Positions 10,544 through 56,357 of a stretch of DNA of 64,000 nt are shown here, piece by piece. The stretch spans positions 1,331 through 65,330 of the forward strand of contig JAFTEW010000042.1 of NCBI GenBank assembly GCA_017453485.1, written 5' to 3'. Source of the stretch: Alphaproteobacteria bacterium (GTDB lineage: Bacteria; Pseudomonadota; Alphaproteobacteria; CAAHEQ01; UBA3637). Position 1 is the first letter of the stretch, and each line of letters starts with the position of its first letter. The translations under genes and the position numbers were made by a program. A model generated the notes under the pieces. The model searched no databases. It saw only the letters and a list, made by a program, of their open reading frames with translations, and was not told the DNA's origin.

Positions 10544-10603
10544 GACAAAAACAGAATAAATTTCAGACATAAAGCAGATAACGGCACATAGACTTAAATC
10601 AGG

Positions 10604-11433: not shown

Positions 11434-11445
11434 AAGAGCGGACGG

Positions 11446-11474: not shown

Positions 11475-11537
11475 CCCGTTTTTAAATGTTTTATGCTCTG
11501 GTGATTATTATCTGCGACAACTATGCCAAAATTAACG

Positions 11538-11568
11538 CAAAAGAAAACACCGCCGAAATGGCGGTGTT
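11538..11568 (-). terminator. intrinsic terminator after rplS
   Basis: 9-bp stem AACACCGCC/GGCGGTGTT with a 5-nt loop. A T-rich run follows on the minus strand. Confidence 0.55.
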
Positions 11569-11582
11569 CCCCGATAAAAAGC

Positions 11583-11960
11583 TTATTCTTCGGTTTCAGC
11601 CGGCATATTATCTTTATCTTCGGTAATACGGGCTTTTTTGCCGAACAGATTCCGCAGGTAGTACAATTTGCTCCGACGGACTTTACCTTTACGCATCACT
11701 TCAATAGAAGCGACATTCGGAGAATACAGCGGGAATACACGTTCCACACCTTCACCGAAAGAAATTTTACGCACTGTGAAAGACGAATTTACCCCATTGT
11801 TGGAACGGGCAATGCACACACCTTCATAAGCCTGTAAACGTTCGCCTTTATCTTCCACAATTTTATACATGACCTTAACGGTATCACCGGCCTTAAATTC
11901 CGGGATTTTTTTATTCAGTTTGGCCATTTGTTCTTTTTCTAATTCTTGAATAATATCCAT
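11583..11960 (-). CDS. rplS: 50S ribosomal protein L19
   Basis: 125 aa. The motif [12 protein letters not shown]...[11 protein letters not shown] is canonical L19. Confidence 0.95.
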
Positions 11961-11974
11961 TTTGTTTTCCTTTC

Positions 11975-12664
11975 TTATTGTTGATTTGCCAGATATTTAG
12001 TCCACAAGTCTGGTCTTCTTGTTTTGGTTAAAATTCGGGATTGCTCCAAACGCCATTGGCGAATATTGGCATGATGCCCTGATGTCAAGACCTCAGGCAC
12101 CGTCATTCCCTGCCAATCTTGCGGCTTAGTATATTGGGGATATTCCAATAAACCATCCGTAAAACTTTCCTCAGCAGCCGATTCGGCATTTCCCATAACC
12201 GACGGGATCAACCTTATCATTGCATCCAGCATAGTTATCAGGGCCGGTTCCCCACCCGACAAGATAAAGTCACCGATACTGATTTCCTGAATGTGCCATT
12301 TTTCCAATACACGTTCGTCAACGCCTTCAAACCGTCCGCAAAGGAATGTCATCTCTTGATTATCCGTCGCCCAAGTTTTGGCTGTATCCTGATTGAACAC
12401 ATAACCGCGCGGGGACAAATAATACAGGGGACCTTTTGTATATGTAGCCATCAGAGCCGCATCGACAATATCCGGTTTCATAACCATCCCGGCGCCACCC
12501 CCAAAGGGCGTATCATCAACAGATTTATAATGGTCTGTTGCAAAATCACGAATATTGACGATATTCAAAACCACTTTACCGTCAGCCAATGCTTTACCGG
12601 CCAGGGAATATCCCAAAGAACCCGGGAACATTTCCGGATAGAGCGTCAAGATGTTAATCTTCAT
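11975..12664 (-). CDS. trmD: tRNA (guanine37-N1)-methyltransferase
   Basis: [15 protein letters not shown]... and LSPRG / [10 protein letters not shown] motifs. The start at 12664 overlaps the rimM end. The ORF-track extension to 12751 lies inside rimM. Confidence 0.9.
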
Positions 12665-13160
12665 GCGTGACCTCCATCCCATCCGGCACAACGATATCCA
12701 TCTCATGTGCGGATACATCAACCCGGGGGAAAGTTGCCTTTGAAAAATCAAAAGTAAATACCCGCCCCTTTACGGTTTTAATATCCAAGACATCACCGGC
12801 ACCATAGTTTTGAACCGACAACACCGTTCCAAACGGCTTTCCGTTTTCCAAAACCTTCATCCCAACTAAATCACAATAATAAAATCCGTCTTTTTGCGGC
12901 GGCAATTGATCACGATTAATGTAGAGATTCAGGCCTTTTATCTGTTCGGCCGTCGTCCGATCGGTAATTCCCTTAATTGAAGCCAGCACAAAATCACCTT
13001 TCCGGCTTTGAACAGTGACTTCAAATATTTGATGACCATCCTTGTCCGATAACGGGCCAAATCGGCCGATATCCGCCGGATCAGATAAATACGGGCGAAT
13101 TTTAACAGCCCCCTTTATTCCGTGGACATTGACAATTTGACCGATACAGACTTTGGACAT
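12654..13160 (-). CDS. rimM: 16S rRNA processing protein RimM
   Basis: 168 aa. It has IGQIVNVHGIKGAVKIRPY (PRC barrel/RimM N-terminus) and lies in the conserved rpsP-rimM-trmD-rplS order. Confidence 0.85.
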   Translation of the reverse strand: MSKVCIGQIVNVHGIKGAVKIRPYLSDPADIGRFGPLSDKDGHQIFEVTVQSRKGDFVLASIKGITDRTTAEQIKGLNLYINRDQLPPQKDGFYYCDLVGMKVLENGKPFGTVLSVQNYGAGDVLDIKTVKGRVFTFDFSKATFPRVDVSAHEMDIVVPDGMEVTHED

Positions 13161-13176
13161 ATCAGGCTATCCTTTC

Positions 13177-13599
13177 CTATTCGGCAGAAGCCAGCGTTTC
13201 GGCCGGTGCGGCAGCCGCAGCGGCTTCGGCTTCAGCAGCCTTACGAGCTTCCTCGGCAGCGGCAGCTTTTTCGGCAGCTTCTTTCATCCGTTCCTGAGCC
13301 TTAGCTTTCGGAGCAGATTTCTTCGGTGTTTCCCGAATGGCCGGCGCATCACAGATACCGACACGAGCAAATAATTTTTGCACTTTTTCAGTCGGTTGAG
13401 CCCCATTGGATAACCACTTTTTAGCGGCTTCTACATCCACACGCAGTGATTCGGCATGATCCTTCGGAAGCAACGGATTATAAAAGCCGATGGCTTCAAT
13501 AAACCGACCGTCGCGAGAAAACCGTTGGTCTGCGACAACAATTTTGTGAAACGGACGCTTTTTGGCACCGCCACGACTTAAACGAATACGAACTGACAT
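13177..13599 (-). CDS. rpsP: 30S ribosomal protein S16 with an Ala/Lys/Glu-rich C-terminal extension
   Basis: [42 protein letters not shown] is canonical S16. A ~55-aa low-complexity tail follows. Confidence 0.9.
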
Positions 13600-13634
13600 A
13601 TTTTATTTTTTCCTTTCTTTTCTGTTAGTTCAGG

Positions 13635-15023
13635 TTAAAACGGAGGGAACCCTCCGCCATTCATAAACGGGTTATTACCCCCCAAGGCACCACCCATCTT
13701 TTTCATCAAAGACATCATACCCAAGGGCCCCATTTTTTTGAATTTCTTCATGACTTCCGCCATTTGTTCATATTGTTTCAATAATCGATTAACATCGTTT
13801 ACCGAAACACCGGCACCATTGGCAATCCGCTGTTTGCGGGCAGCCTTTAACACATCGGGATTCCGACGTTCATACGGTGTCATCGACAAGATAATGGCCT
13901 CTTGCCGTTTAATAATTTTATTATCAATATTGGCTGAATCTATTTGGGCGGAAAATTTACTGAAACCCGGAATCATTTTCATGACGCCCTTAATATCCCC
14001 CATATTATTGATTTGACGCATTTGGGACAGCAAATCATTCAAATCAAATCGACCGGACATCATCCGTTCGGCCACACGACTGGCTTCTTCTTGATTCACT
14101 TTTTCAATGGCCGTTTCAACCAAACCAACCACATCACCCATCCCCAATATGCGACCGGCGATGCGCTTGGCATCAAACAACTCCAAAGCATCGTTTTTTT
14201 CCCCGACGCCTAAAAATTGGACAGGCACCCCCGTGACAGCCCGCATAGATAAGGCTGCTCCACCCCGAGAATCTCCGTCAATTCGGGTCAAAATCGTTCC
14301 TGTGACCCCGATTTTATCCTTAAAAGCCTGTGCAATTTGAACAGCATCCTGCCCCATCAGCGCATCGGCAACCAATAAAATTTCGACCGGCTTTGTCAAA
14401 TCCCGAATCGTGGCCACTTCTGTCATCATGGTTTCATCAATATGGAGCCGCCCTGCCGTATCCAAAATCAGCACATCCGCCAGAGTCTCTTTTGCTTCTT
14501 TTAACGCCCGTTTGGTAATTTGTATCGGATTTTCATTCATCACAATCGGTAAAACCGTCAATCCGTTAGCCGATCCCAATTCGGATAATTGTTCTTGGGC
14601 CGCCGGCCGATAAGTATCAAGACTGGCCAACAACACTTTTTTACCTTCTTTTTGCAGGCGTTTAGCCAACTTGGCCGAGGATGTCGTTTTACCAGATCCC
14701 TGTAATCCCACCATCAAAATCACATTTTGATGATGCGGGACCAGGGCCAAAGGTTTGGATTCCCCCAACAACTCAACCAAAGCATCATTGACGATTTTGA
14801 CAACCATTTGTGCCGGAGAGACCGATTTGATAATCTGTTCCCCGATGGCTTTTTCACGAACGGAAGAAATAAAATTTTTAATAATGGGGAGTGCTACATC
14901 CGCTTCAATTAAGGCAATTTTGATTTCCCGCATTGTTTCATCAACGGCGGCTTCGGTTAAAATACCCCGACGGGTTAACCTATCAAAAACGGCATTCAAT
15001 TTGTCGGCCAAGCCTGCGAACAT
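13635..15023 (-). CDS. ffh: signal recognition particle protein Ffh
   Basis: 462 aa with the GLQGSGKTT P-loop, DTAGRL, and a Met-rich M domain at the C-terminus. Confidence 0.95.
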   Translation of the reverse strand: MFAGLADKLNAVFDRLTRRGILTEAAVDETMREIKIALIEADVALPIIKNFISSVREKAIGEQIIKSVSPAQMVVKIVNDALVELLGESKPLALVPHHQNVILMVGLQGSGKTTSSAKLAKRLQKEGKKVLLASLDTYRPAAQEQLSELGSANGLTVLPIVMNENPIQITKRALKEAKETLADVLILDTAGRLHIDETMMTEVATIRDLTKPVEILLVADALMGQDAVQIAQAFKDKIGVTGTILTRIDGDSRGGAALSMRAVTGVPVQFLGVGEKNDALELFDAKRIAGRILGMGDVVGLVETAIEKVNQEEASRVAERMMSGRFDLNDLLSQMRQINNMGDIKGVMKMIPGFSKFSAQIDSANIDNKIIKRQEAIILSMTPYERRNPDVLKAARKQRIANGAGVSVNDVNRLLKQYEQMAEVMKKFKKMGPLGMMSLMKKMGGALGGNNPFMNGGGFPPF

Positions 15024-41946: not shown

Positions 41947-41984
41947 TCGTTTGTATCTAAAACAATCGAGATTCAAATAAAAAA

Positions 41985-42010
41985 GCCGCCTGTTCAGGCG
42001 GCTATATTGC
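41985..42010. terminator. intrinsic terminator between convergent dnaJ and the PEP-utilising gene
   Basis: GCCGCC-TGTTCA-GGCGGC hairpin flanked by an A-run and T-rich sequence. Confidence 0.55.
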
Positions 42011-42026
42011 TCCTTAAATAAAATTC

Positions 42027-42821
42027 TTATTTCTTTAACAAATAAACCTTTCCGGTATGACCATCCACACGAACTTTTTTCCCGTTTTTCAGTATTTTCA
42101 TCACATTTCTGACGGACATAACAGCCGGCAACTTCATCTCACGCGCCGTCACGGCACCGTGTGATAGCGGTCCGCCGCTTTCGGTAATTAAAGCCTTTGC
42201 ATTATAAAACAACGGTGTCCAGGCCGGATTAGTCGTCCGGGCAACCAAAATCGTATTTTTGGGGAACGCAGCAAAGTCTTCCGTTGAATGGATCAGATAG
42301 ACTTTTCCTTCGGCGATACCGGCACTACCGGCCAAACCGGTCAAGACATCCCCGTTACCGGCATTCGTTTGCGATACTTCCGCCTGTTGATTTAAATCCC
42401 AAGCCGGTATCCGTTTAGCATTTTTGCGATAATTTTTCTTTTCCGTTTCAATACTTTTCTTCAAGTCCGACCATCCTTTACCGGTTCGAACACATTTTTC
42501 TAAGGCTTCCAACCGGGCAAAGAAAATATCCATCGGATCAGAAATTATTTTCTTCCGAACCAAGTGTTCCCCCATAGCCCGGGCAGCCTTGCGAATGGGT
42601 AATGTCAGACGGGTCGTCTGATAGTGTTCCACATCATCTAACACCGTATAGGTATCAATCAAAGCCAAAAATTGATACACAAACAACTTTAAGTCTTCTG
42701 GGATAAGGGCAATAACTGATTTGACGGCCTCATATTTTTGAACCAGCAACGCTCGTTCTTTTTCAGTCGGTGCTTTCGTGTTTGGATTTTTTACAATCAA
42801 GATAATGTTATCCAATACCAC
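42027..42821 (-). CDS. PEP-utilising enzyme, C-terminal fragment (swivel phospho-histidine domain)
   Basis: 264 aa (GTG start in the ORF track). The mobile-domain motif is ILVARTTNPAWTPLF...ITESGGPLSHGAVTAREM. It is in the same frame as 42909..44546, and only a TAG at 42909..42911 separates them. Confidence 0.7.
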   Translation of the reverse strand: MVLDNIILIVKNPNTKAPTEKERALLVQKYEAVKSVIALIPEDLKLFVYQFLALIDTYTVLDDVEHYQTTRLTLPIRKAARAMGEHLVRKKIISDPMDIFFARLEALEKCVRTGKGWSDLKKSIETEKKNYRKNAKRIPAWDLNQQAEVSQTNAGNGDVLTGLAGSAGIAEGKVYLIHSTEDFAAFPKNTILVARTTNPAWTPLFYNAKALITESGGPLSHGAVTAREMKLPAVMSVRNVMKILKNGKKVRVDGHTGKVYLLKK

Positions 42822-42908
42822 ATTCGGTTGTTCAATCCACGTCGGGACATAATAATCAAAATCCGTTTCCCGATGACCGTGGTGCGCCAGAAAATCGTTA
42901 AAAGCGGC

Positions 42909-44546
42909 CTAGAATTCGGGATATTTTTTCAAGTATCCACGGGATAAAAAGGCTTTTGATGACATTGACGTTATTTTCTGATGCAATTCTTTGTCTTTTA
43001 AAATCATTTGCGCCAGGCCATACAATTCGTTATTCACCTGGGCCGTGCGCGTTTCGCTTGTCGAAATAAGGGCATCAAACAAACGATTAACCTGATCACT
43101 GTCTTTAATCAGCAATCCCAATACCCCTTTCAAGATTTTATAAAGCAATGCCTGGGTAATGGAAATTGCTATATTCGGCTTGAAATATTCGGTTCCCAAT
43201 GTCACGATTCGTTGAGCATAATCCCATGTTTCAGACAGGGAGTAATGACTGATATCCTCGGCCATCAGAGCACCAATTTGTTGCAAATAATTATCCAGAT
43301 GCCGCATCCATTGTTTGGGTAGCGTGATGGCATAATCAAACCGCTTTTGTAATTGCGGCAATTGATTTATAAGGTTTTCAAACGATTTTACATGGAACGG
43401 CGATTGCTCCATATAAAGCCAAACCGCATTTTGATTCCCATAAATATAGTTATCAAACATGGCAAACCATTTGCCGTTAAACGGTGGTAATCCCATCAAT
43501 TCAAAGGAATGTTTCAAGGATACATGGAATGCCCGCTCTACATAATCCCAGGTAAAAGGTGTCAGCACATTCGGATAACGTTCGGCCGATTCATCCCGAG
43601 TCCAATGCGGAGCAATCGTCGTAATGGGACGGGCCTGTAATAAGAACAATTTTTTCTTTTCAATCGCCCATTCAATATCCTGCGGAAAGCCGTAATATTT
43701 TTCCACATCACGATTCAGTTTGGCAATTTGTTCCACTTCTTTAACCGTCAAGCAACTTTTATCGGCCAATGCCGGCTTGATTTTTTGTTCAATTGTGCCC
43801 GTCGGAGTCGGTAAAATACAAATCTTTTTGTGTGCAATCGATGAACTTTGCGTTTTTAAATCTTTTTTGGAAACGATAAACTGATCAACTTCGGCCTCTC
43901 CGCTGACAACCGATTCACCCAATCCGTAATTGGCGTTAATCATTATTTCCCGCACATTACTGTTAATCGGATTGATTGAGAAACCAACCCCGGCTTTTTC
44001 GGCATGAACCATTTGCTGAACAACAACGGCCATTGTCACTTCATCTTGGGAAAAACCTTGTTGATGGCGATATAAAATCGCCCGATCATGCCACAGTGAA
44101 ATAAAACAATCACGAATTTTTTCAACGATTTCATCGGCTCCGTGACAATTCAAAAAAGTATCGTGCTGACCGGCAAAGGCCGCCCCGGACAAATCTTCCA
44201 TCGTGGAAGAAGACCGAACCGAAAAATACATTTCCTTCGGGAACTTTTTTAATCCTTTTTTGATTGATTTAACCACGGAATCCGGCAATTTAACAGTCTT
44301 TAACTTTTGACGAATTTGAATGGCCTGCTTTTCCAACACATCCGGACGGTTGTAATCCAGTTTCTTCAAAAGAGCGGCTAAAAATTTAGCACCCGAGATA
44401 AAAGCCTGATAAGCCTCAGCCGTTACGATAAAACCAAATGGGACGGGAAAACCGGCTTGGGTCATTTTGGATAAATTTGATCCCTTTCCGCCGGTCAGGC
44501 GAATTTCTTTGGCCAATACCTCATCAAAAAATAATATATCGTTCAT
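42909..44546 (-). CDS. PEP-utilising enzyme, N-terminal fragment (PPDK_N ATP-grasp domain), rifampicin-phosphotransferase/PpsA-like
   Basis: 545 aa. LTGGKGSNLSKMTQAGFPVPFGFIVT is typical of the pyruvate-phosphate-dikinase N-terminal nucleotide-binding domain. It ends at an in-frame TAG. Confidence 0.75.
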   Translation of the reverse strand: MNDILFFDEVLAKEIRLTGGKGSNLSKMTQAGFPVPFGFIVTAEAYQAFISGAKFLAALLKKLDYNRPDVLEKQAIQIRQKLKTVKLPDSVVKSIKKGLKKFPKEMYFSVRSSSTMEDLSGAAFAGQHDTFLNCHGADEIVEKIRDCFISLWHDRAILYRHQQGFSQDEVTMAVVVQQMVHAEKAGVGFSINPINSNVREIMINANYGLGESVVSGEAEVDQFIVSKKDLKTQSSSIAHKKICILPTPTGTIEQKIKPALADKSCLTVKEVEQIAKLNRDVEKYYGFPQDIEWAIEKKKLFLLQARPITTIAPHWTRDESAERYPNVLTPFTWDYVERAFHVSLKHSFELMGLPPFNGKWFAMFDNYIYGNQNAVWLYMEQSPFHVKSFENLINQLPQLQKRFDYAITLPKQWMRHLDNYLQQIGALMAEDISHYSLSETWDYAQRIVTLGTEYFKPNIAISITQALLYKILKGVLGLLIKDSDQVNRLFDALISTSETRTAQVNNELYGLAQMILKDKELHQKITSMSSKAFLSRGYLKKYPEF

Positions 44547-44547
44547 T

Positions 44548-45387
44548 TTAATCTCCTTTCTGATATCTGTAATGCTTCATCAAATATAGACAACCGGCGG
44601 CCAGGGCAAATCCGACCATACAGTCAACCGTATAATGATATCTTAAATAAATTGTTGAAAACCAAAGCAAAAGACAAATCGGTGCAAAAATGATAAACCA
44701 ACGCCGATGATAAAAATAATCTGCCCCCAATATCAACAGAGAAACACCGCAATGTAAACTGGGAAAAACATCAGTATAATTGGTTCCTTTCGGATATGCC
44801 CAATTCAGCAAATCCCGAAAAAACCAAGCGTCCAGCGGATCGGTAAAGGTATCTTTTAAATACAGATACGGACCATAGGCCGGCACCAGGATATATCCGA
44901 TAAAACCAATCGCATACAAGGACATTAACCCTACATAAAAACGTTGACGAACCTCTGCCCCGTCAAACAAATAAAGAGCGGAGCGCAAGAACAGTTGCAC
45001 CATAAACAGCATATAAGCCAGGCTGAGGACCTCAGTCATCAGGGGATGGGCAAACGGTTCCATAGCAACGGATAAATTTTGTCCGAAAACAATGGTATCG
45101 ATTTGATTGAGCAATGCATCCTTATGCCCTGCCGGATTGATAAGCGGAGATATATATTCCACGGCATTAAACATACCGTTCATAATCAAGATATATGCCC
45201 CCAGGCGCACAAACGGCCGGTGACAAAAAACAAGACCGACCACCAAAATCATCATGGCAACGGAAAATACACTCCATCCCGAGAGGCCAACATACCAAAA
45301 CAACAAGCCCGTTTGTAATCCCAAATAGCACAACCACAATGTTTCATGCGGTAAAATTCTATGAACAAAGTTTTTTAATAATTTCAT
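44548..45387 (-). CDS. PAP2-superfamily integral membrane enzyme, sphingomyelin-synthase/Aur1 (inositolphosphotransferase)-like
   Basis: 279 aa, ~6-7 TM segments. The C2-like motif is FPSLHCG and the C3-like motif is YHYTVDCMVGF (compare H-Y-T-x-D-V of SMS/IPC synthases). Its stop abuts the start of the next gene. Confidence 0.6.
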   Translation of the reverse strand: MKLLKNFVHRILPHETLWLCYLGLQTGLLFWYVGLSGWSVFSVAMMILVVGLVFCHRPFVRLGAYILIMNGMFNAVEYISPLINPAGHKDALLNQIDTIVFGQNLSVAMEPFAHPLMTEVLSLAYMLFMVQLFLRSALYLFDGAEVRQRFYVGLMSLYAIGFIGYILVPAYGPYLYLKDTFTDPLDAWFFRDLLNWAYPKGTNYTDVFPSLHCGVSLLILGADYFYHRRWFIIFAPICLLLWFSTIYLRYHYTVDCMVGFALAAGCLYLMKHYRYQKGD

Positions 45388-46507
45388 ATTGACTCTCTTG
45401 AAACAGTGAATACCCTTGACGATATAGCATCCAATTGATTAAGGCATATGTGTGTTTTTTAAACGCTCCATACAGGTGCAATCCCCATAAGCTGAACAAA
45501 AAGGCTCCTCCCATCCATAAAGGGGAACAAAACAATCCTACCACATACATCAAAGCACCGGCCGGATATCCGACCAATCCCCGCCATAACGAAATAGTAT
45601 TCGGGTCGTGCAATCGGGTCCGACCAGCCAAATATCCCATCAAAATCGGTATCAAATTAAAAAGAAGCGTCGGCACGACAATCGGTATCGTAATACCGAC
45701 AACCCATACAGATTGTAAAACCGATTGCGGATAGATTTTAACTCCTTTATAAGACAGCATACCAGCCGGTATTTTCTGATGATATTGCCGGACGATATCT
45801 GAAATATCCGCCCGTTCCCGTATCCGGTTCAGAGCCGTCACATAACTCATTTTTTTGGATAATGCCGCCAAAACAGCCGCCTGGTGTGCCAATTGCTGTG
45901 CTTCAACCGATGAATAAGAAAAAGTAATTTTTTCAAATTCCGACAGTGTCTGTCGCCCGATATCATCCGCTGTCATATCCGCTGAAACCGATATTTTCTG
46001 CCCGCCGATCACCCAAACAGAACCACCCAATTTTGTCGGATCATCATAAATAATCGCCATCGGCAGAATATCGGTCCGATTTCCGGCCGCCGTATTCATT
46101 TGGGCCATTTTGGCATAACCGTTATGGAAGGGCAAATGTGTCGGTCCCAAAGAACTGGTCCCCTCGGGAAAAAGGCACAAAGGCTCTTTATCCCCCCTCA
46201 GAACAGCTAAACAAGCCCGTAAAGACGACGTATTAGATTGCTCTTTGTCGGCTGTATCTTTGGCTCGCGAAACAGCAATTCCGGGGAAAAGAAAACGTAA
46301 AAAAGCATTTTTTTGCAACTGACGTGCCAGCAAAAACACGCCTTTTTTTAAAACCGAATGATATACAAAACCGTCTATGGCACCGTTGCGATGGGATAAA
46401 ATCAGCAGATTTTCCCGAATATCACGCGGTAAATTTTCGGCATAAATATGTCGAAAATAAGTCCAAACATAGAGTTTACATATAAAATTTTGTATCAATC
46501 CCCGCAT
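45359..46507 (-). CDS. PlsC-family (lysophospholipid/glycerolipid) acyltransferase with a C-terminal membrane domain
   Basis: 382 aa with the HX4D box SHRNGAIDG and FPEGTSS. The C-terminal ~120 aa are hydrophobic. It overlaps the next gene by 29 nt. Confidence 0.7.
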   Translation of the reverse strand: MRGLIQNFICKLYVWTYFRHIYAENLPRDIRENLLILSHRNGAIDGFVYHSVLKKGVFLLARQLQKNAFLRFLFPGIAVSRAKDTADKEQSNTSSLRACLAVLRGDKEPLCLFPEGTSSLGPTHLPFHNGYAKMAQMNTAAGNRTDILPMAIIYDDPTKLGGSVWVIGGQKISVSADMTADDIGRQTLSEFEKITFSYSSVEAQQLAHQAAVLAALSKKMSYVTALNRIRERADISDIVRQYHQKIPAGMLSYKGVKIYPQSVLQSVWVVGITIPIVVPTLLFNLIPILMGYLAGRTRLHDPNTISLWRGLVGYPAGALMYVVGLFCSPLWMGGAFLFSLWGLHLYGAFKKHTYALINWMLYRQGYSLFQESQYEIIKKLCS

Positions 46508-46572
46508 CTTTTACCCGTTTCAAAATCTGAGTCGGATTATAAAATATCATTTCCGGATATGCAATAAAAAAC

Positions 46573-46600
46573 TTGCATTTCATCCGTTTTTGATTATGAT
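46573..46600 (+). promoter_or_regulatory. candidate sigma70-like promoter for the LplT-Aas fusion gene
   Basis: TTGCAT, 16 nt, TATGAT. Confidence 0.4.
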
Positions 46601-46626
46601 AGTCATATTCACATAAAAAAAGGGGA

Positions 46627-49600
46627 ATGAGTATGTCTGAAAATATCTTGAAAACAAAACGTTTTTTGCCATTGTTGTTGACTCAGTTTTTTGGGGCTTT
46701 AAACGATAACCTGTTCAAAAATGCCCTGCTGATGCTGGTCACCATCCGATTGGCGGATAAGGCCGATATTCTATCCAATGTCATCGCAGCCCTATTCATC
46801 ATTCCGTTTTTTTTGTTTTCGGCAACAGCCGGTGAAGTATCCGATAAATACGACCGTGGCCGGATTGCCCGTATTCTGAAAGTCACCGAATTGATTTTGA
46901 TGACTTTCGTCGGAATTATCTACCTGACACAATATCTGCCGGGATTGATTTTGCTATTGGCCTTGATGGGGACACAATCGGCTTTTTTCGGACCGGTAAA
47001 GTATGCCTTGTTGCCACAACACCTGAAACCCAGTGAATTGGTAGCTGGTAATGCCTATGTTGAAGCTTCAACCTATATGGCGATTTTAATCGGCCTGATT
47101 GTTGGAACATTGTTGCCGATCGGCGGTGTTATTCTGTTGCTGATAACCCTAGCAATAATGGGAGTTATCTCGGCCTGGCAAATCCCTGTAGCCCCGCCTG
47201 TGCGTCCTGATGCCACTATTCATAAAAATATATTAAAATCAACGGTGACAACTCTGTCCCTGATTTATAAAAATAAAATCGTGTTTCGCAGTATATTGGG
47301 GGCTACCTGGTTTTGGATGATCGGGGCATTTGTTGTCGTTCAAATTTACCCGCTGTCGGGTAATATCTTAAATGCGGGCAATACGGTTATTACCCTCTTT
47401 TTAATCCTGTTTTCGGTCGGTGTTGCCTGCGGTTCGCTGTTGTGCGGTCATCTAATGAAGGGCATGATACACACAACCTATATCCCCATCAGCACCTTAG
47501 GGATGGGGGGGTGTTTTCTTGTCCTATATGCCTTGACAAATCAATACCCGACACCGGATGCAACCGTTGGTTTAGCCAACTTTTGGTTCATGCCACACGC
47601 CGTTGCCATTTGCCTGACATTGTTCCTGATGGCGTTCTTCGGCGGTATTTATATCGTGCCATTGAATGCCTTAATTCAGGCCAAAGCCCCCAAAGCATAT
47701 ACGGCGTCAATCATCGGCGGAAATAATATCGTTAACTCTTTCGGGATGGCCATGATTTCAATACTGGCCGTTGTTTTATTATCTGCCGGTATAACAATTC
47801 CTCAGTTGTTTTTGTTAATTGCGGTTGCCAGTGTCGGCGTTTTCTTCTATGTGTGCCGATTATTGCCGGACGCCTTATTGCGATCAATTTTACAAGGCAT
47901 ATTCGGTCTGTTCTTCCGGGTGCATTTGGATGGCATTCAAAATTTCAAAAAAGCCGGTAAACGTGTATTACTGGTTGCTAATCATACTTCCTTGTTGGAC
48001 GGGTTGCTCATCGCCGTTTTTATGCCGGAAAGAGTGACATTTGCCATCAACACGGAATGGGCCAAAAAATGGTTTATCAAGCCGTTCGGGATGTTGGTTG
48101 ATTTATATCCCCTGGATCCGACTAACCCGATGGCTATTCGGTCTTTGATTAACGAGGTAAAAGCCGATAAAAAAGTCATGATCTTCCCCGAAGGTCGGAT
48201 CAGCGTCACCGGCGGGCTAATGAAGGTTTATGAAGGTGCCGGTGTCATTGCTCAAAAAGCTAATGCAAAAATTTTACCGATTCGGATTAACGGTGCACAA
48301 TTCAGCAAATTTTCTTACCTGAAACATAAGTTAAAAACACGACTTTTCCCAAAAATCAATATGACAATTTTAAAGCCGCAGCAATTCTCCATCCCCGACG
48401 GCATTGTCGGTCGGGACGGACGGCATTATATTTCCATGCAGTTATATGATTTAATGGCTGATATGATGTATGCGACATCAAATATCAATGAACATCTGTT
48501 TCGGTCACTGTTGGAAGCCGCCGATTTACACGGTTGGAATCATAAAATCGCGGAAGATATTTCACGTAAACCGATATCCTATCGCACACTGATTCAAAAA
48601 GCCTACATTTTAGGACGTGCCTACCAAACGGATATGCCGCACGAAGACTATGTGGGATTGATGTTGCCGAACGGATTGGCCAATGTGGTCAGTTTCTTTG
48701 CCCTGCAATCTGTTGATAAAGTGCCGGTTATGCTTAATTTTTCGCAAGGTGTCTCACAAATTATTTCCTGTGTGAATACGGTTCGTTTAAAAACCGTCAT
48801 TACATCCCGTTTGTTTATTCGGGTTGCGCATTTAGAGCATTTAGAACAGGCTTTGACAACCAACGGCACACGCATTATTTACTTAGAACGATTTGCAAAA
48901 AACATTCCCTTTGCAGATAAAATTGTCGGCTATGGCAAATACCTGGCTCAAACAAAACCCATTCATTCAGCCGATCAAACAGCTACCATTCTGTTTACGT
49001 CCGGTTCGGAAGGAATGCCGAAAGCCGTCTTACTGTCACATAAAAACTTACAGGCCAATCGTTATCAAATTACCAGCGTCATGGCCTTTAATTCATCAGA
49101 TGTCTTTTTCAACGCTTTACCGATGTTTCATTCGTTCGGATTATCGGTCGGCACCGTTATTCCGATTTTATCGGGGGTTAAGGCTTTCTTTTACCCGTCA
49201 CCGCTTCATTATCGGATTGTGCCGGAATTGGTCTATGACACCAATGCCACCATTATCTGCGGAACGGATACATTTTTCTTCGGATACGGACGGATGGGAC
49301 ATCCGTATGACTTCTTTAACTTGAAATATGCCGTTGTCGGCGGAGAAAAATTAAAAGAGCAAACTGCCGATTTATGGATGAAAAAATTCGGGGTCCGTAT
49401 TTTGGAAGGCTATGGAGCTACCGAAACAGCACCGGTTTTGGCTCTGAATACGCCCATGAACATCAAAATGGGAACGGTGGGGCGTCTTTTACCCCATATT
49501 CAATACAAGTTGATGACTGTCCCCGGCGTAGAAGACGGCGGCCAACTCTGGGTTCGAGGAGACAATGTCATGCAAGGCTATATGAAAGCCGATAAACCCG

Positions 49601-50001
49601 GACAATTGCAACCGCCGAAAAATCATTGGTATGACACCGGCGATATCGTATCCGTTGATAATGACGGCTTTATTGCCATCCGGGGACGGGCGAAACGGTT
49701 TGCTAAAATCGCCGGAGAAATGGTATCTTTAACTTCTGTGGAACAAATCGTTGATCAACTTTATCCGGGCTTTATTCAGGGAATTTTAACCGAACCCGAC
49801 GTCAAAAAGGGAGAGCAATTGATTCTGGTGACCAATAACGAAAAAGCCACCGTAGCCGAACTGCGACAATTTTTCCGTGATAACGGATTTAGCGAATTAT
49901 GGATTCCCAAACGAGTGGTTTATTTAAAGCATCCTCCCGTTTTGGGAACCGGTAAGTTTGACTATCAAACAGCAAAAAAGCAGTTAAATGATGAAAAATA
50001 A
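46627..50001 (+). CDS. aas: triple fusion: MFS lysophospholipid transporter (LplT-like) + PlsC-type acyltransferase + acyl-ACP synthetase (Aas-like)
   Basis: 1124 aa. The N-terminal ~410 aa are a 12-TM MFS. The middle has NHTSLLDG (HX4D) and FPEGRIS. The C-terminus has the AMP-binding motif FTSGSEGMPKAV and YDTGD...RAKRFAKIAGEMVS. Confidence 0.85.
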   Translation: MSMSENILKTKRFLPLLLTQFFGALNDNLFKNALLMLVTIRLADKADILSNVIAALFIIPFFLFSATAGEVSDKYDRGRIARILKVTELILMTFVGIIYLTQYLPGLILLLALMGTQSAFFGPVKYALLPQHLKPSELVAGNAYVEASTYMAILIGLIVGTLLPIGGVILLLITLAIMGVISAWQIPVAPPVRPDATIHKNILKSTVTTLSLIYKNKIVFRSILGATWFWMIGAFVVVQIYPLSGNILNAGNTVITLFLILFSVGVACGSLLCGHLMKGMIHTTYIPISTLGMGGCFLVLYALTNQYPTPDATVGLANFWFMPHAVAICLTLFLMAFFGGIYIVPLNALIQAKAPKAYTASIIGGNNIVNSFGMAMISILAVVLLSAGITIPQLFLLIAVASVGVFFYVCRLLPDALLRSILQGIFGLFFRVHLDGIQNFKKAGKRVLLVANHTSLLDGLLIAVFMPERVTFAINTEWAKKWFIKPFGMLVDLYPLDPTNPMAIRSLINEVKADKKVMIFPEGRISVTGGLMKVYEGAGVIAQKANAKILPIRINGAQFSKFSYLKHKLKTRLFPKINMTILKPQQFSIPDGIVGRDGRHYISMQLYDLMADMMYATSNINEHLFRSLLEAADLHGWNHKIAEDISRKPISYRTLIQKAYILGRAYQTDMPHEDYVGLMLPNGLANVVSFFALQSVDKVPVMLNFSQGVSQIISCVNTVRLKTVITSRLFIRVAHLEHLEQALTTNGTRIIYLERFAKNIPFADKIVGYGKYLAQTKPIHSADQTATILFTSGSEGMPKAVLLSHKNLQANRYQITSVMAFNSSDVFFNALPMFHSFGLSVGTVIPILSGVKAFFYPSPLHYRIVPELVYDTNATIICGTDTFFFGYGRMGHPYDFFNLKYAVVGGEKLKEQTADLWMKKFGVRILEGYGATETAPVLALNTPMNIKMGTVGRLLPHIQYKLMTVPGVEDGGQLWVRGDNVMQGYMKADKPGQLQPPKNHWYDTGDIVSVDNDGFIAIRGRAKRFAKIAGEMVSLTSVEQIVDQLYPGFIQGILTEPDVKKGEQLILVTNNEKATVAELRQFFRDNGFSELWIPKRVVYLKHPPVLGTGKFDYQTAKKQLNDEK

Positions 50002-50767
50002 ACTTTTACCCTATTCGGCTCAAATAGAGCCGGTCATCGGGACTGATGTAAAATCATTGAATGATTTAGAAACATTTTATCGGAATGTTTATCTGGATTG
50101 CTTTACCAATAAGGATGAACGGGAAAGTTTAAATAATTTGTTTTTTTATTTAAAAAGAAGCACCAAAACCCGTCTATGGAAATACCATATTATTTTAATC
50201 AAGGATAACACGGGGTCTATCTTGGGTGGTGCCATTTTTGATTATTTCAAAAAATCAAATACCGGAATGGTTGAATTTGTTGCCATCCGAAAAGATTACC
50301 AACATTTGGGGCTTGGCTCTTTTTTGTATCGAGCTATTTTAAGGTATCTGATTGCCGATGCCCGACAAAACCATCTGACAAAACCGGCCTATGTTTTTTG
50401 TGAGGTAGAAATTCCGGCAACCCGTGGTCGGTATAAAAAGAATATCCTTTTTTGGAATCACCACCGCTTTCGGCACCTAAATTTTCAATATATCCAACCA
50501 AACTTATCTCCGGGGCAAAAAGCCCTGAATAACCTATGGCTAATGATGCGTGGCACCGATACATCCGTGCCGGGGCAATTGATTTTAAACGTTTTATCAG
50601 ACTACCTAAAATACGGTATGAATATCCCCAAACCGACACAAAACCCCCACTACCGCAAAATGAGGCAAGAAATTACCCGCATGGGAAATGTGTCAACATC
50701 AACGCTGTCAGAATCGACACGACCATCCGGTAAACATCGACTTACTTCAAAAAATACTCAATCGTAG
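49988..50767 (+). CDS. GNAT-family N-acetyltransferase-like protein
   Basis: 259 aa. The motif-A-like segment is VEFVAIRKDYQHLGLGSFLYRAIL. It overlaps the aas-like stop by 14 nt. Confidence 0.55.
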   Translation: MMKNKLLPYSAQIEPVIGTDVKSLNDLETFYRNVYLDCFTNKDERESLNNLFFYLKRSTKTRLWKYHIILIKDNTGSILGGAIFDYFKKSNTGMVEFVAIRKDYQHLGLGSFLYRAILRYLIADARQNHLTKPAYVFCEVEIPATRGRYKKNILFWNHHRFRHLNFQYIQPNLSPGQKALNNLWLMMRGTDTSVPGQLILNVLSDYLKYGMNIPKPTQNPHYRKMRQEITRMGNVSTSTLSESTRPSGKHRLTSKNTQS

Positions 50768-52397: not shown

Positions 52398-54572
52398 TTA
52401 TTTTAAAACACACTTTCCGCCAGTTATTTGCCGTGGCGTATTTGTCGAATCACACTTGGCACAATCCGTAGTTGAAGCTTCATATGCCATCGCATCCGAA
52501 CAGGGCAAACATACCCAATCGCCGTAATCATCTTTTCCTTTAAAATAGCCATTGGGACATCCGCCGGACAAAGAGCATTTATTCCCGACCATAGTGCGCT
52601 TATAGGGTGTGCTGTCACATTTGGCACATTCCTCGGCCGATGTTTCTTTGGCCGCCGTATTTGAGCAAATTGTGCAGTTCCCGTTGGCATTTTGGAACCA
52701 GCCCTCCGAACAAATCGGATTACAATAATTACCGGAAACTTTTCGCGGATTATCCGTCAAAGCACATTTGTTACATTGTTCTGCCGTCGCGGCATAGCGC
52801 ATCCGATCCGAACAAGCGTGACACTCCCCGCTTGTATCCTGAAAATAGCCGGTCGGACAAATTTTTAAAACACAATATTTTCCATTCATACCACGCGGAT
52901 AATCGGTTGAATCGCATTTAGCACATTCTGCCTCTGTGACAGGCGTGCGCTTATTCGCATCCGAACAGGTGCGACACTCCCCGCTTGTATCTTGAAAATA
53001 GCCGGTCGGACAAGCGGACGGGAAACACTTGTCTCCAAATATTTTTCGGGAGTTATCCGTATCATCGCAGGCCGAACAGGCGGCGGCCGTTGAAACATAG
53101 CCGTCCTTATCCGAACAACTGCGACAAACCATATAATCCGTTTGGAAAAATTGCCCGTTTGCACAAAGTCCGCAATAAAGAGTTCCTTTATCACTTCCCA
53201 AAATACGGGGTGTATTCGTCTGATCACACTTGGCACATTCGGTTTCATCATAGGGCTCATAGCGGCCGATCTGAGAGCAAGAGATACATGTCCCGTTTTT
53301 GCCCCGGAAAGAGCCCGAGGAGCAGGTATCTAAAACACAACTGTTCCCTTCCATTTTGCGTGACGGATCAGAACATTTGGCACATTCCTCCGCCGTCGTT
53401 TGATATCCCGTCATATCCGAACAAGAGCGGCAATTACCGTCCGCATCATAGAACTGTCCCGACGGACAGGAAGCGGGTTTACAGAATTGGCCGAAAACCT
53501 TGCGAGAGGAACCGGTATCGGCACACTTGGCACATTCGTCGGCCGAGGCACGATAACTATCCTGTGCGGAACATTCCCGACACAAACCTTTTGAATCCTG
53601 AAACCAGCCGCCATGACATCCCCCAAGGGTGCAATAATTCCCGTCCATATACCTGTGATAGGGTGTGCTGTCACATTTGGCACATTCTTCGGCCGATGTT
53701 TCTTTCGCCGCCGTATTTGAACAAATTGTGCAGTTCCCGTTGGCATTTTGGAACCAGCCGTCCGGACAAATTAAATCACAATAAGCCCCGTTCATTTTTC
53801 GAGGATTCCCTGTGGAATCGCATTTTTGGCACTCCTCGGCGGATGCCGTATATCTGTATATATCCGAACAGGAAACACATTGTCCCGCCGCATTCAAAAA
53901 GTATTTTGACGGACAATTGCATGTATTTCCCACACAAACATAACCGTCTGAACATTGGCTGTCCGACAGGCAACAATTTGTCGGCTCCGCACATTCATTT
54001 CCGTTATCCGGACAACATTCTGTCACGGTACCGTTGCAATTATGAATGGGGATGACTTCGCTTCGACAAGAGGGTTCTTTTGTCCCCGAATCAGAGCCAT
54101 GTTTTTCACCAGCCTCGGCCCCACCCGTCGATCCGCCGGAAAAAGCCGAAACATATAACATATCATAAAAACGAAATAAAATATTGTTTTCATCCGAATC
54201 ACAACGACCGTTCACGACACCGTTTACGGTTATTTTCTTGGGTAAGGACCAACTGGCAGACATAACTTTTTCACAAACCCCTTTGGGGACATCAAATACC
54301 GTCAGGGAAAAGGTGCGATCATTATTTTGAACCGCCAAAAACGGATAGTCCATCAGATTATGCGTCCGAAATTCCGTTAAATCCAACTGGCGACCTGATC
54401 CGATTTGAACATGTGCCGTTGTCACCATCATATGCACACTGTGCAACAATTCATTGGCTCTATGCTTATCCAAGGCATAACGATAGCCCAAAACTCCGCC
54501 CAGACTTAATAATCCGACAATGGCCAGCACCCCAAGCATTTCGACCATACTGCGACCCGAATCGTTCCGCAT
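52398..54572 (-). CDS. prepilin-type (class III signal) N-terminus fused to a ~130-aa head domain, a G/S/acidic linker and ten tandem 6-Cys modules
   Basis: 724 aa. MRNDSG|RSMVEMLGVLAIVGLLSLGGVLGY has a short basic leader, a Gly, a Glu at +5 and a ~20-aa hydrophobic helix. Residues ~220-724 are ten ~50-aa repeats of the form CPxG[WYF]F...C..CS...EC.KCD...R..G..C. Confidence 0.75.
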   Translation of the reverse strand: MRNDSGRSMVEMLGVLAIVGLLSLGGVLGYRYALDKHRANELLHSVHMMVTTAHVQIGSGRQLDLTEFRTHNLMDYPFLAVQNNDRTFSLTVFDVPKGVCEKVMSASWSLPKKITVNGVVNGRCDSDENNILFRFYDMLYVSAFSGGSTGGAEAGEKHGSDSGTKEPSCRSEVIPIHNCNGTVTECCPDNGNECAEPTNCCLSDSQCSDGYVCVGNTCNCPSKYFLNAAGQCVSCSDIYRYTASAEECQKCDSTGNPRKMNGAYCDLICPDGWFQNANGNCTICSNTAAKETSAEECAKCDSTPYHRYMDGNYCTLGGCHGGWFQDSKGLCRECSAQDSYRASADECAKCADTGSSRKVFGQFCKPASCPSGQFYDADGNCRSCSDMTGYQTTAEECAKCSDPSRKMEGNSCVLDTCSSGSFRGKNGTCISCSQIGRYEPYDETECAKCDQTNTPRILGSDKGTLYCGLCANGQFFQTDYMVCRSCSDKDGYVSTAAACSACDDTDNSRKIFGDKCFPSACPTGYFQDTSGECRTCSDANKRTPVTEAECAKCDSTDYPRGMNGKYCVLKICPTGYFQDTSGECHACSDRMRYAATAEQCNKCALTDNPRKVSGNYCNPICSEGWFQNANGNCTICSNTAAKETSAEECAKCDSTPYKRTMVGNKCSLSGGCPNGYFKGKDDYGDWVCLPCSDAMAYEASTTDCAKCDSTNTPRQITGGKCVLK
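52401..53915 (-). repeat. ten tandem ~150-nt coding repeats (6-Cys modules) inside the pilin-like gene, with two ~96% identical 114-nt copies
   Basis: 52602..52715 and 53658..53771 differ at 5 of 114 positions (offset 1056 nt). 52821..52860 and 52974..53013 differ at 1 of 40 positions (offset 153 nt). Confidence 0.8.
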
Positions 54573-54638: not shown

Positions 54639-55526
54639 TTAAATCGTATATTTTTGTTTTTCGGCGGCAGCCATTTTTAAAACAGCGGGCGGAATAACAA
54701 TTTCAGGATGGGAATGTTGCATATATTCCACATACTTATATTCAACATATTTGAACAAATCAACAATCTGACGAATTTTTTCTCGGTCACATAATTTGTG
54801 ATTTTGTGCTTGATAAGCCTCTATCAGAGCCTCCCCCCATTCCGAATCGGACCGTCCGACAAATCGGCCGATATCAGCATGCGGATCAGAAACAGAAACA
54901 AAGGAAAAATCGATAATACCACTGACCCGATAATCATCCCCAACCAAAATATTTCCCGGATTAAAATCTCCGTGAACGATACACGGCTTTTTCATTTGTT
55001 GTTCCAAAACAACCAAATTATGGTGGTAATCCAAATCATATTGTCCCTGATGGACCGTCGCCAAACCACTTAAAAAGTCATTCAAACTTTCCGTGACGGC
55101 CGTCGGTAATGTTTCGATCGGCAAATGATGCAATTCTGACAGAAACAGCGCCATATCAGCCACAATCTGTTCCCGATCAACATCGGTTGCCGCGTCCATT
55201 ACCTGCGTCAAAGCCCGACCGGGAATTTTATAATGCATGGAAAACGGTCTGTTTTGATGACTCATCAGATGCATATCCGGAATGCGTATCGTTGTTTTTC
55301 CTTGCAAGCATTGACAAATTGTGCAATCTTTAACCATCATTTCGGCAAAGAATAAATTCCTGGGAAACCGAAAAATATAATCATGCAATTCCCCATGAAC
55401 ATCAATGGTAATATTTGTCCATCCCGTTGGAATGATTTGGGCTCCGATAACCGAATCATTCTTCCCGATTGTTTCATAAATAATTTGCTTTAATTCAGTT
55501 TCATTCGGTTCAAAAAATTGGTACAT
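54639..55526 (-). CDS. APH/choline-kinase-fold phosphotransferase
   Basis: 295 aa. The catalytic loop is IVHGDFNPGNILV and the metal-binding segment is GIIDFSFVSVSDPHADIG. Confidence 0.8.
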   Translation of the reverse strand: MYQFFEPNETELKQIIYETIGKNDSVIGAQIIPTGWTNITIDVHGELHDYIFRFPRNLFFAEMMVKDCTICQCLQGKTTIRIPDMHLMSHQNRPFSMHYKIPGRALTQVMDAATDVDREQIVADMALFLSELHHLPIETLPTAVTESLNDFLSGLATVHQGQYDLDYHHNLVVLEQQMKKPCIVHGDFNPGNILVGDDYRVSGIIDFSFVSVSDPHADIGRFVGRSDSEWGEALIEAYQAQNHKLCDREKIRQIVDLFKYVEYKYVEYMQHSHPEIVIPPAVLKMAAAEKQKYTI

Positions 55527-56357
55527 TTAAAAAACTCCAAATTGTTTCATCCAATATTTCTTCGCTTTTAAAATAGGTTTCGGATTCTTCACACGATTAT
55601 TGTGGCGATATTTTTCCAGAAAACGAGGGACACTCCTATTCCGGAAAGATGTTTGCTTTATCGGATGAGTCTGATAATGCGTCCACAACCAAATCCGATC
55701 CGATTTTTCAAAGAAATCAGCCTGCACCAAAGCCTTTAAAGATGGGGCCAAAGCATTAAAAAAGTAATCCGACGACGTCGGTTTAACATATCGTCCCGTT
55801 TGGATTTGCCGACGACGAATAAAAGCATCAGATACTTTTTTAGGAACGCATAAAACATGCATATAAACGCGATAACCGTAGTGTTTAGCCAACATCATCA
55901 GATATAAATCTATTTCGGGCTCCAATAATGTCATATCCAACACCAAATTGATTCGGGAACGAACACAATATTGATAAAATAAAACCAAAGCCCTTAATGC
56001 AAAACCGTTTGTGTTTTCCCGCATTTTATCCGGTTCGGTTTGCTGCCAAAAAGTATATTTCGGATGGAAGGGGGCAAAGGCACCAACATTGATTTTTAAA
56101 TAAGGAATACCCAATAATGCTTCTTGAACAGCCGGTGTTAACTGGGATGATTTCCCGCTACCGGATTGACCCGCCATCCGAAAAAGAAATGGATGTTCCG
56201 ACGATAACTTGTCCGTCCGGAAATACCGAATAATATCATCCATCGGAATACGGTTTAGCAATTCATCTTCACACGGGAAAATCCGCTGGATAGCGGCAAA
56301 GGCCCGCCGTTCAAGTTCTTGAATTCCCGCAACTGACATATCATTCTGTTCCGACAT
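55527..56357 (-). CDS. zeta-toxin-like P-loop kinase
   Basis: 276 aa with P-loop MAGQSGSGKSS. The downstream VGAFAPFHPKY and INLVLDMTLL follow the zeta-toxin (PF06414-like) order of motifs. Its stop directly abuts the APH ATG. Confidence 0.55.
   Translation of the reverse strand: MSEQNDMSVAGIQELERRAFAAIQRIFPCEDELLNRIPMDDIIRYFRTDKLSSEHPFLFRMAGQSGSGKSSQLTPAVQEALLGIPYLKINVGAFAPFHPKYTFWQQTEPDKMRENTNGFALRALVLFYQYCVRSRINLVLDMTLLEPEIDLYLMMLAKHYGYRVYMHVLCVPKKVSDAFIRRRQIQTGRYVKPTSSDYFFNALAPSLKALVQADFFEKSDRIWLWTHYQTHPIKQTSFRNRSVPRFLEKYRHNNRVKNPKPILKAKKYWMKQFGVF

Follow-up and report, generated by a model that had tools for sequence, protein, structure and literature searches.

An acyltransferase, an Aur1-like PAP2 enzyme and an Rph-like kinase encoded by a three-gene membrane-lipid cassette found in about ten phyla

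The membrane-lipid metabolism of bacteria is regarded as mapped for the most part. Enzymes of the Aur1 type are familiar as sphingolipid synthases of eukaryotes and of Bacteroides; enzymes of the rifampicin phosphotransferase (Rph) type are known for the phosphorylation of antibiotics and aromatic compounds. Re-acylation of lysolipids through an LplT-type flippase and a GPAT/PlsC-like acyltransferase is likewise part of the established knowledge of LplT and Aas. Here we analyse a 64,000-nt stretch of DNA from an alphaproteobacterium (the window; all coordinates are window positions), in which relatives of these enzymes, an acyltransferase, an Aur1-like PAP2 enzyme and an Rph-like kinase, are encoded by three consecutive genes on the minus strand. 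The locus is a copy of a widespread and self-contained three-gene membrane-lipid cassette, which we found at about 100 loci in about ten phyla, and in the window as assembled its kinase gene is interrupted. The chemistry of the described relatives sets the frame for what follows. In Aur1 the catalytic triad is luminal, and the reaction proceeds through a phospho-head-group-histidine intermediate with release of diacylglycerol (PMC13133130). Rph is described as using ATP to convert a hydroxyl to a phosphoester with formation of AMP and Pi (PMC4844700), and the HpeHI kinase, a relative of Rph, as phosphorylating hydroxyphenylethanones (PMC12167813).

The first gene of the window cassette (45359..46507, minus strand) encodes a membrane-anchored PlsC/GPAT-type acyltransferase of 382 residues, an assignment based on PF01553, catalytic motifs, an AlphaFold (AF2) model and fold matches. 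The second (44548..45387, minus) encodes an Aur1-like PAP2_3 integral membrane enzyme of 279 residues with eight transmembrane helices, as judged from PF14378, invariant motifs, profile comparison, an AF2 model and Foldseek. The third (42027..44546, minus), assigned through PF01326 and PF00391, spans 839 codons and encodes an Rph-like phosphotransferase composed of an ATP-grasp domain, a central domain and a swivel-His domain. All of the Pfam families that the first-pass annotation of this DNA had listed for checking were matched, including PF01569, which was found in gene 2 together with PF14378. The reading frames of genes 1 and 2 share 29 nt, and the ATG of gene 3 at 44546 follows after a 1-nt spacer. 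An intrinsic-terminator-like hairpin of eight pairs (six of them GC) with a T-run lies 24 nt past the gene 3 stop (41984..42003, minus) and is the probable end of the operon. Because the genes overlap or abut, are followed by a single strong terminator and have the same geometry in relatives, the data support one operon, as first proposed from the positions of the three genes, their 29-nt overlap and their 1-nt spacer. Upstream, a divergent intergenic region of 119 bp (46508..46626), the presumed promoter region, separates gene 1 from an LplT-Aas gene. A promoter scan of the region upstream of the operon performed no better than a shuffled control and established no specific site, and an Rfam scan of the window gave three tRNAs only, with nothing regulatory close to the operon.

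Conservation of the trio was assessed from two directions. A scan with a PAP2 profile, at one genome per species, gave 581 confirmed relatives, and the best 80 loci of these were analysed. The kinase gene lay immediately downstream of the PAP2 gene in 43 of the best 80, with the acyltransferase gene upstream in 38 of those 43, and clustering of the same best 80 of 581 loci recovered the trio in 34. The converse search started from a kinase profile run on JGI metagenomes: of 71 evaluable loci, 49 had a PAP2_3 gene directly upstream of the kinase gene, and of 60 loci evaluable for the acyltransferase gene, 50 had it adjacent. About nine further metagenome loci had the order PAP2-acyltransferase-kinase, an order that characterizes a more distant subgroup of the cassette (L121, L132, L146, L147, L148, L158 and L163). 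The junctions within the trio are typically 4-nt overlaps or 1-nt spacers, the 29-nt overlap recurs too, and the surrounding genes otherwise bear no relation to one another across loci. Co-localisation in other genomes, on which the first-pass annotation had made its proposal depend, was therefore found in many genomes and metagenomes.

Among the best 80 loci the closest relative of the trio, with 59-70% identity, is that of an Alphaproteobacteria metagenome-assembled genome. The other hosts are diverse and comprise Elusimicrobia, Campylobacter taeniopygiae, Helicobacter cinaedi, Parachlamydiales, Cardiobacteriaceae, Burkholderiales, Propionivibrio, Klebsiella spallanzanii, Desulfobulbaceae, Aneurinibacillus danicus and a Roseiflexaceae metagenome-assembled genome, together with many Verrucomicrobiota, Planctomycetota and Acidobacteriota. 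Open reading frames (ORFs) that seemed to be PAP2-kinase or acyltransferase-PAP2 fusions (L048, L054, L071 and L044) were rejected as artefacts of ORF calling, the parts being in different frames, and Pfam detected no PAP2 domain on the long kinase ORFs of these supposed fusion loci.

The PAP2 protein matches PF14378 (PAP2_3) with 66.1 bits (gathering cut-off 27) and PF01569 with 34.8 bits (cut-off 27.2). The His-His-Asp triad of motifs C2 (PSxH) and C3 (HxxxD) is present as PSLH (H212) and HYTVD (H251 and D255), which are invariant across 19 homologues, where they form part of the longer invariant motifs DVFPSLHC and YL[R/H]YHYxxD. A profile of the homologues aligned with yeast Aur1 (9vj3) over its full length (residues 16-271, E=5.4e-8), whereas the match of the same profile to Bacillus subtilis PgpB was confined to the last 58 residues. 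The AF2 model, with a predicted local distance difference test score (pLDDT) of 93, has eight long helices, and Foldseek returned the Aur1 cryo-EM structure 9vj4_A as the top match (E=4.5e-6, template-modelling score 0.61, 281 columns), with PgpB and LpxE far weaker (E=0.02-0.05). Residues H212, H251 and D255 aligned to H255, H294 and D298 of Aur1 and were placed at the predicted periplasmic ends of transmembrane helices 6 to 8. In the homologue alignment the loops have no conserved K/RP of the C1 motif (KX6RP), and there is no Arg at position -6, the C3 arginine of phosphomonoesterases.

These comparisons support an enzyme of the Aur1/sphingomyelin synthase (SMS) head-group-transferase type rather than a plain phosphatase, and the absence of C1 suggests a diester substrate. 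The earlier proposal that PSLH and HYTVD are arranged as in sphingomyelin and inositol-phosphorylceramide synthases is borne out by the alignment to the Aur1 triad and by Aur1 being the best profile and fold match. The protein does not group with plain undecaprenyl-pyrophosphate or phosphatidic-acid phosphatases, as would have counted against that proposal, since it lacks C1 as well as the C3 arginine and since PgpB and LpxE are the weaker matches. In the model 12 Lys/Arg residues are found in the short N-terminal, even-numbered and C-terminal loops and five in the loops that bear the triad. Together with the homology to Aur1 these counts are consistent with an N-in/C-in orientation in which the predicted active site faces the periplasm, at the outer leaflet.

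A sphingolipid product had been among the suggestions of the first-pass annotation. The PAP2_3 enzyme would then move a phospho-head group to ceramide, as do Aur1, SMS and the phosphoinositol-dihydroceramide synthase of Bacteroides, and the kinase would act on ceramide or a long-chain base. In keeping with this, distant PAP2_3 homologues (30-37% identity) in eight loci of Syntrophaceae/Deltaproteobacteria metagenome-assembled genomes (L068, L070, L073, L074, L076, L078, L079 and L083, at about 10000-14000 in each) adjoin genes for a serine palmitoyltransferase (SPT)-like alpha-oxoamine synthase, an epimerase-family short-chain dehydrogenase/reductase (SDR) and a 380-aa protein. The best NCBIfam match of the SPT-like gene is the serine palmitoyltransferase model NF047600 (568 bits, cut-off 640), and the conserved 380-aa protein has no Pfam or NCBIfam match; these loci may represent a bacterial gene cluster for phospho-sphingolipids that includes an N-acyltransferase-like partner. 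The window PAP2 protein also gives a weak match to the Bacteroides phosphoinositol-dihydroceramide synthase model NF052609, but at 18.4 bits this is far from the cut-off of 480. Moreover, in a neighbour-joining tree the SPT-linked PAP2_3 proteins form a clade of their own, apart from those of the trio. Neighbourhood searches, which covered the 64-kb window and the flanks of about 100 trio loci, found no gene resembling SPT, CerS or CerR and none of the SDR and 380-aa genes of the SPT-linked loci. The trio also occurs in Campylobacter, Helicobacter, Klebsiella and Aneurinibacillus, none of which is, to our knowledge, a known sphingolipid producer. Members of the PAP2_3 family can apparently take part in sphingolipid synthesis, but this seems not to hold for the trio, and we consider a sphingolipid role of the cassette very improbable.

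Gene 3 matches PF01326 with 309 bits and PF00391 with 80 bits. When codon 546, a stop codon in the window (see below), is repaired to Glu, PF01326 falls at residues 17-312 and PF00391 at 761-832, as is the case for the L004 orthologue, and neither protein matches the phosphoenolpyruvate (PEP)/pyruvate TIM-barrel family PF02896. The PDB matches include the Listeria RPH entries 5fbs and 5hv1. The swivel-domain motif GGPLSHGAVTARE, with the expected phospho-His, is conserved, and the central domain contains the invariant motifs RWTRDESAERFP, YGNQNAV, HGHRE.DFD.Y.PTW and LDD.EHYQTTRLT. The nearest NCBIfam models are the uncharacterised 'PRK06241' models, Rph and PigC, and all scores are far below cut-off. 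The two pieces of the window kinase gave 272.7 and 118.3 bits with Rph model NF041857 (cut-off 999) and 180 and 76 bits with Rph model NF000283 (cut-off 1700), and the kinase gave about 320 bits with the PigC model (cut-off 1300). The PEP synthase/pyruvate phosphate dikinase models behaved similarly (300 versus 598 bits for NF005057 and 289 versus 740 bits for TIGR01418). An Rph-type architecture of ATP-grasp, central and swivel-His domains with no barrel is thus supported, in agreement with the first description of the gene as a dikinase-type enzyme built like rifampicin phosphotransferase, yet by these scores the protein appears to lie outside every curated family.

This architecture leaves room for a role in the inactivation of xenobiotics or antibiotics, in which the kinase would phosphorylate a hydrophobic foreign molecule, as do Rph, flavonoid kinases and HpeHI, and the two membrane enzymes would adapt the envelope. 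Relatives of the same architecture are described as acting on rifampicin and phenolic compounds (PMC4844700, PMC12167813), and Rph and PigC are among the closest NCBIfam models. However, the Rph and PigC scores are far under the cut-offs, and the kinase gene is translationally coupled to the genes of two lipid enzymes at about 100 loci in about ten phyla, with no conserved efflux or regulator genes alongside. The cassette was not found in Escherichia coli genomes (blastn) or on plasmids (tblastn), and PADLOC gave no match to a defence system. We regard inactivation of a foreign molecule as an improbable function.

The first-pass annotation took 44546-42027 for one intact gene and overlooked an in-frame stop, so this part of it does not hold. 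Codon 546 is TAG (42909..42911, minus). The stop leaves an N-terminal piece of 545 residues, with the ATP-grasp domain and half of the central domain, and a downstream piece of 264-293 codons. The first possible start of the latter is a GTG at 42821, 29 codons past the TAG and beyond the invariant HGHRE.DFD.Y.PTW. Position 546 is variable among 38 kinase orthologues and directly precedes that motif. Since the break thus falls inside the central domain ahead of an invariant motif, neither piece could work alone. In nearly all other genomes the gene is intact; it is a single ORF of about 840 residues in 40 of 41 orthologue loci, and decay of the kinase gene in all relatives, which would have undercut the earlier proposal, is not what we found. 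A single other relative has its kinase gene split, into pieces of 463 + 275 aa, possibly through a sequencing indel; it is a metagenome-assembled genome labelled uncultured Verrucomicrobiae (L023, 11202-13362).

Four contigs in public metagenome assemblies encode an identical PAP2 protein, and three of these (L001, L002 and L003) were compared with the window. L001 is 99.95% identical over 20.8 kb with four differences, three of which lie within 42911-42949 (L001 12439-12471): the TAG of the window, a 7-nt frameshifting deletion in L001 at the site of the stop, and a Phe/Tyr change. L003 has GAG (Glu) at codon 546, and the end of L002 lies 15 nt upstream of the position of the stop. The GAG of L003 and the comparison of the near-identical contigs indicate that the ancestral codon 546 was a sense codon. 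An 8-bp palindrome, CGAATTCG, includes the site in L003; the window has this palindrome in broken form, and in L001 it is deleted. The region may be a hotspot of mutation, reflect a strain bubble or stem from faulty assembly.

In the window, therefore, the kinase gene either is a recent pseudogene, which would leave the cassette crippled, or was mis-assembled at that base. We find the evidence evenly balanced on whether the gene is a true pseudogene and the cassette a decaying remnant without intact function. The in-frame TAG itself, the independent frameshifting deletion at the same spot in a contig that otherwise shows one further difference in 20.8 kb, and the want of a restart codon ahead of the invariant motif all favour decay. 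Against decay, L003 reads GAG, and the end of L002 so close to the stop suggests a strain-variable or hard-to-assemble site. Moreover, the kinase gene has no other stops or frameshifts and its remainder is highly conserved, and the acyltransferase and PAP2 genes are intact. Frameshifts in the kinase genes of L003 and of L085, a relative with a 93% identical acyltransferase, were at first sight further signs of decay and were rejected as scaffold N-gaps. Stop-codon reassignment was also rejected, since all other long ORFs of the window (e.g. of 1124 and 864 aa) are uninterrupted, as was a naturally split two-subunit kinase of the HpeHI kind, given a break inside the central domain and a first restart past an invariant motif. 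Exact look-up of the 545-aa piece gave no record and that of the 264-aa piece gave the L001 contig only, with no further copies of the TAG allele, and no match to the TAG site came from a pattern scan of JGI metagenomes.

Gene 1 matches PF01553 (38.9 bits, cut-off 23) and falls short of the 1-acylglycerol-3-phosphate acyltransferase model TIGR00530 (26.9 bits, cut-off 102.95). Its catalytic motifs HRNGAxDG, GIxVxR and FPEGTSxLGP are conserved in two alignments, of 23 and 19 orthologues; H39, D45 and P114-E115-G116 are invariant and T117 is present in at least 90% of the 23. In the alignment to PlsC the His-Asp spacing of residues 39-45 is HX5D, one residue more than the classical HX4D, and this spacing is invariant in the orthologues examined. 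In the AF2 model (pLDDT 87.5) the catalytic domain is of the alpha/beta type, and after it come long C-terminal helices (residues 263-381) that form a four-helix membrane domain with the conserved polar residues N284, N303, K351 and N358. The best folds were human GPAT1 (8e4y) and Thermotoga maritima PlsC (5kym), the latter with a profile match of E=1.7e-4.

The divergent neighbour of gene 1 (46627..50001, plus strand) encodes a 1124-aa fusion of LplT, an MFS protein, with an acyltransferase and the acyl-ACP synthetase Aas. It scores 1413.4 bits with the LplT-Aas fusion model NF005291 (cut-off 1349), and PF07690, PF01553 and PF00501 were all found. A full LplT-Aas gene abuts the trio, directly upstream and on the same strand, in L004-L006 and is nearby in several other loci; an MFS-acyltransferase gene lies just upstream in L046 and a separate MFS gene is present in L035. 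In a member of the Parachlamydiales (L008, 7767-9995) a 742-aa protein fuses an LplT-like MFS domain to a cassette-type acyltransferase, and its gene immediately precedes those for the PAP2_3 enzyme and the kinase. The acyltransferase part of this fusion carries the cassette-specific motifs and does not resemble the acyltransferase domain of the Aas type. The same-operon placement in L004-L006 and the L008 fusion support a functional link between the LplT-Aas neighbour and the cassette, which strengthens the lipid-remodelling theme that the first-pass annotation had drawn from this fusion and the GNAT gene behind it. The GNAT-like gene (49988..50767, plus), which shares 14 nt with the end of the Aas gene, matches PF00583 only weakly (E=4.8e-7); tblastn detected it at none of the other trio loci, so it is not conserved with the trio.

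A further recurrent neighbour is a YiiX/YaeF permuted-papain (Peptidase_C92) protein of about 480 residues, encoded beside the trio in nine genome and 11 metagenome loci, mainly of Verrucomicrobiota, Planctomycetota and Betaproteobacteria (e.g. L020 7041-8489, L035 5657-7213 and L093 2401-3795). NCBIfam gave no name for this protein, which is possibly a lipid acyl-hydrolase or acyl-transferase.

By their sequences the PAP2_3 active site should be periplasmic and the acyltransferase and kinase cytoplasmic, so a pathway joining them has to involve a lipid able to cross the membrane. Diacylglycerol or monoacylglycerol would be the simplest link to the two cytoplasmic enzymes because neutral lipids of this kind pass through the bilayer unaided. 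The reading we favour, tentatively and at rather less than an even chance, is removal or transfer of glycerolipid head groups in the outer leaflet followed by re-phosphorylation and re-acylation in the cytoplasm. The PAP2_3 enzyme would attack the phosphodiester of a (lyso)glycerophospholipid in the outer leaflet via a phospho-head-group-His intermediate and hand the head group to water or to an acceptor, leaving diacyl- or monoacylglycerol. The neutral lipid would flip inward, where the Rph-like enzyme would re-phosphorylate its free hydroxyl through the swivel phospho-His with conversion of ATP to AMP and Pi. The acyltransferase would re-acylate the lyso-intermediate, which LplT-type flippases could also supply, and the lipid would return to the phosphatidic-acid/phospholipid pool. 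The EptA/MCR-DgkA pairs are described with an analogous logic of head-group transfer and diacylglycerol recycling (PMC7559476).

Several points weigh against this scheme. The entire order of reactions is put together from the predicted properties of the enzymes, and the missing C1 motif of the PAP2_3 enzyme points to a diester substrate but does not prove it. The LplT fusion argues that the acyltransferase may take head-group-bearing lysolipids rather than lysophosphatidic acid. The flow may also run the opposite way, with a cytoplasmic product flipped out to the PAP2_3 enzyme. In most bacteria ordinary DgkA and PlsC do recycling of this kind, for which an 840-aa dikinase is not obviously needed. 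Finally, with its kinase ORF broken the pathway may be idle in the window genome.

The cassette could instead make an unusual phospholipid de novo, in line with the hypothesis of the first-pass annotation, and one of a class not described so far: the dikinase would phosphorylate a lipid or polyol precursor, the acyltransferase would acylate it and the Aur1-like enzyme would install or exchange a head group after flipping. The tight coupling of a self-contained cassette amid variable flanks fits such a pathway, as do the resemblance of the acyltransferase to GPAT1/PlsC, whose acceptors bear phosphate, and the biosynthetic head-group transfer that Aur1-type enzymes perform. The literature holds no described pathway that we could find, and the polar residues N284, N303, K351 and N358 of the acyltransferase membrane domain could serve transport or complex formation. 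However, de novo synthesis needs a flippase step between the cytoplasmic partners and the periplasmic PAP2_3 site, the surroundings of the trio show no conserved gene for the synthesis of head groups (CDP-alcohol transferase, sugar or inositol enzymes), and the recurrent partners LplT, Aas and C92 point to recycling or remodelling more than to a new head group. We consider de novo synthesis only slightly less likely than head-group removal or transfer with recycling of the neutral lipid.

Full-text literature searches found no published description of a cassette of acyltransferase, PAP2_3 enzyme and Rph-like kinase, and the Lipocone paper mentions PAP2 in passing only. The first-pass annotation was aware of no described pathway that couples a dikinase-type enzyme to lipid acyl- and head-group transferases, and our searches found none either. 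All three proteins belong to known superfamilies, yet they score below the cut-offs of every characterised family. There is an appreciable, though less than even, prospect that the cassette encodes an undescribed bacterial lipid pathway in which an enzyme of the PEP-utilising family phosphorylates a membrane lipid and works with a non-sphingolipid Aur1-type head-group transferase and a dedicated acyltransferase, either to make a new lipid class or to salvage foreign or damaged phospholipids. If so, the kinase would be the first lipid-directed member of the PEP-utilising family, present in about ten phyla that include Campylobacter, Helicobacter, Klebsiella, Chlamydiae and Verrucomicrobia. There is a fair chance that new lipid-kinase chemistry lies behind what otherwise resembles the known lipid head-group and remodelling systems. 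A module with no assigned reaction is in any event carried by about ten phyla, human-associated genera included. The combination of Aur1-type, Rph-type and acyltransferase genes in one LplT-linked operon leads us to propose, as a hypothesis, new lipid-kinase chemistry or a route of head-group transfer or salvage. For the window genome, where the kinase gene is interrupted, read-level verification is due before function is assumed.

Two other features of the window lie beyond the GNAT-like gene. A 724-aa ORF (52398-54572, minus) with no Pfam match is built of diverged repeats of about 150 nt (50 aa), and a 222-nt segment of it is duplicated 1056 nt apart at 80% identity. Two adjacent ORFs follow at 54639-56357 (minus). 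On the near-identical contigs L001 and L002 the first of these is called an APH-type phosphotransferase (PF01636), and in the relative L085 the gene beside the APH-type one is called Zeta-toxin/AAA_33. The pair may be a toxin or resistance module that adjoins the repeat protein.

The described systems closest to the cassette each resemble one part of it. The head-group transferases Aur1 and SMS/LPT share with the PAP2_3 enzyme an eight-helix fold that is alignable over its full length, the triad of FPSLH and HYxxD in an exoplasmic position and the absence of a C1 motif. They differ in that the cassette enzyme is bacterial and only about 18% identical to Aur1, with no Kei1-like partner identified, and is coupled to an acyltransferase and a dikinase-type enzyme, with no ceramide-synthesis genes nearby. 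The Bacteroides phosphoinositol-dihydroceramide synthase and the SPT-linked PAP2_3 proteins belong to the same Pfam family and have the same catalytic motifs, whereas the SPT-linked proteins fall in a separate clade and have neither acyltransferase nor kinase partners. Rph and its relatives (PigC/RedH, phenylphosphate synthase and HpeHI) have the ATP-grasp (PPDK_N) domain, central substrate domain and swivel phospho-His of the cassette kinase and likewise no TIM barrel. The cassette kinase is set apart by scores far below their cut-offs (about 390 summed bits versus 999 for Rph), by invariant central-domain motifs of its own and by membrane-lipid enzymes as operon partners. The LplT-Aas system also pairs an MFS flippase with a PlsC-type acyltransferase, but the cassette acyltransferase has no AMP-binding partner domain, carries HRNGAxDG and its own four-helix membrane domain and is not recognisably similar in BLASTP to the acyltransferase domain of Aas. 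By analogy, the cassette may share its logic with EptA/MCR with DgkA or PAP2 and with LtaS with DgkB, in which an outer-leaflet enzyme strips phospho-head groups from phospholipids and the diacylglycerol is recycled by a kinase in the cytoplasm. In those systems, however, the transferases are of the alkaline-phosphatase type and the kinases are DgkA or DgkB, whereas in the cassette a PAP2_3 enzyme and a His-swivel dikinase would take these parts.

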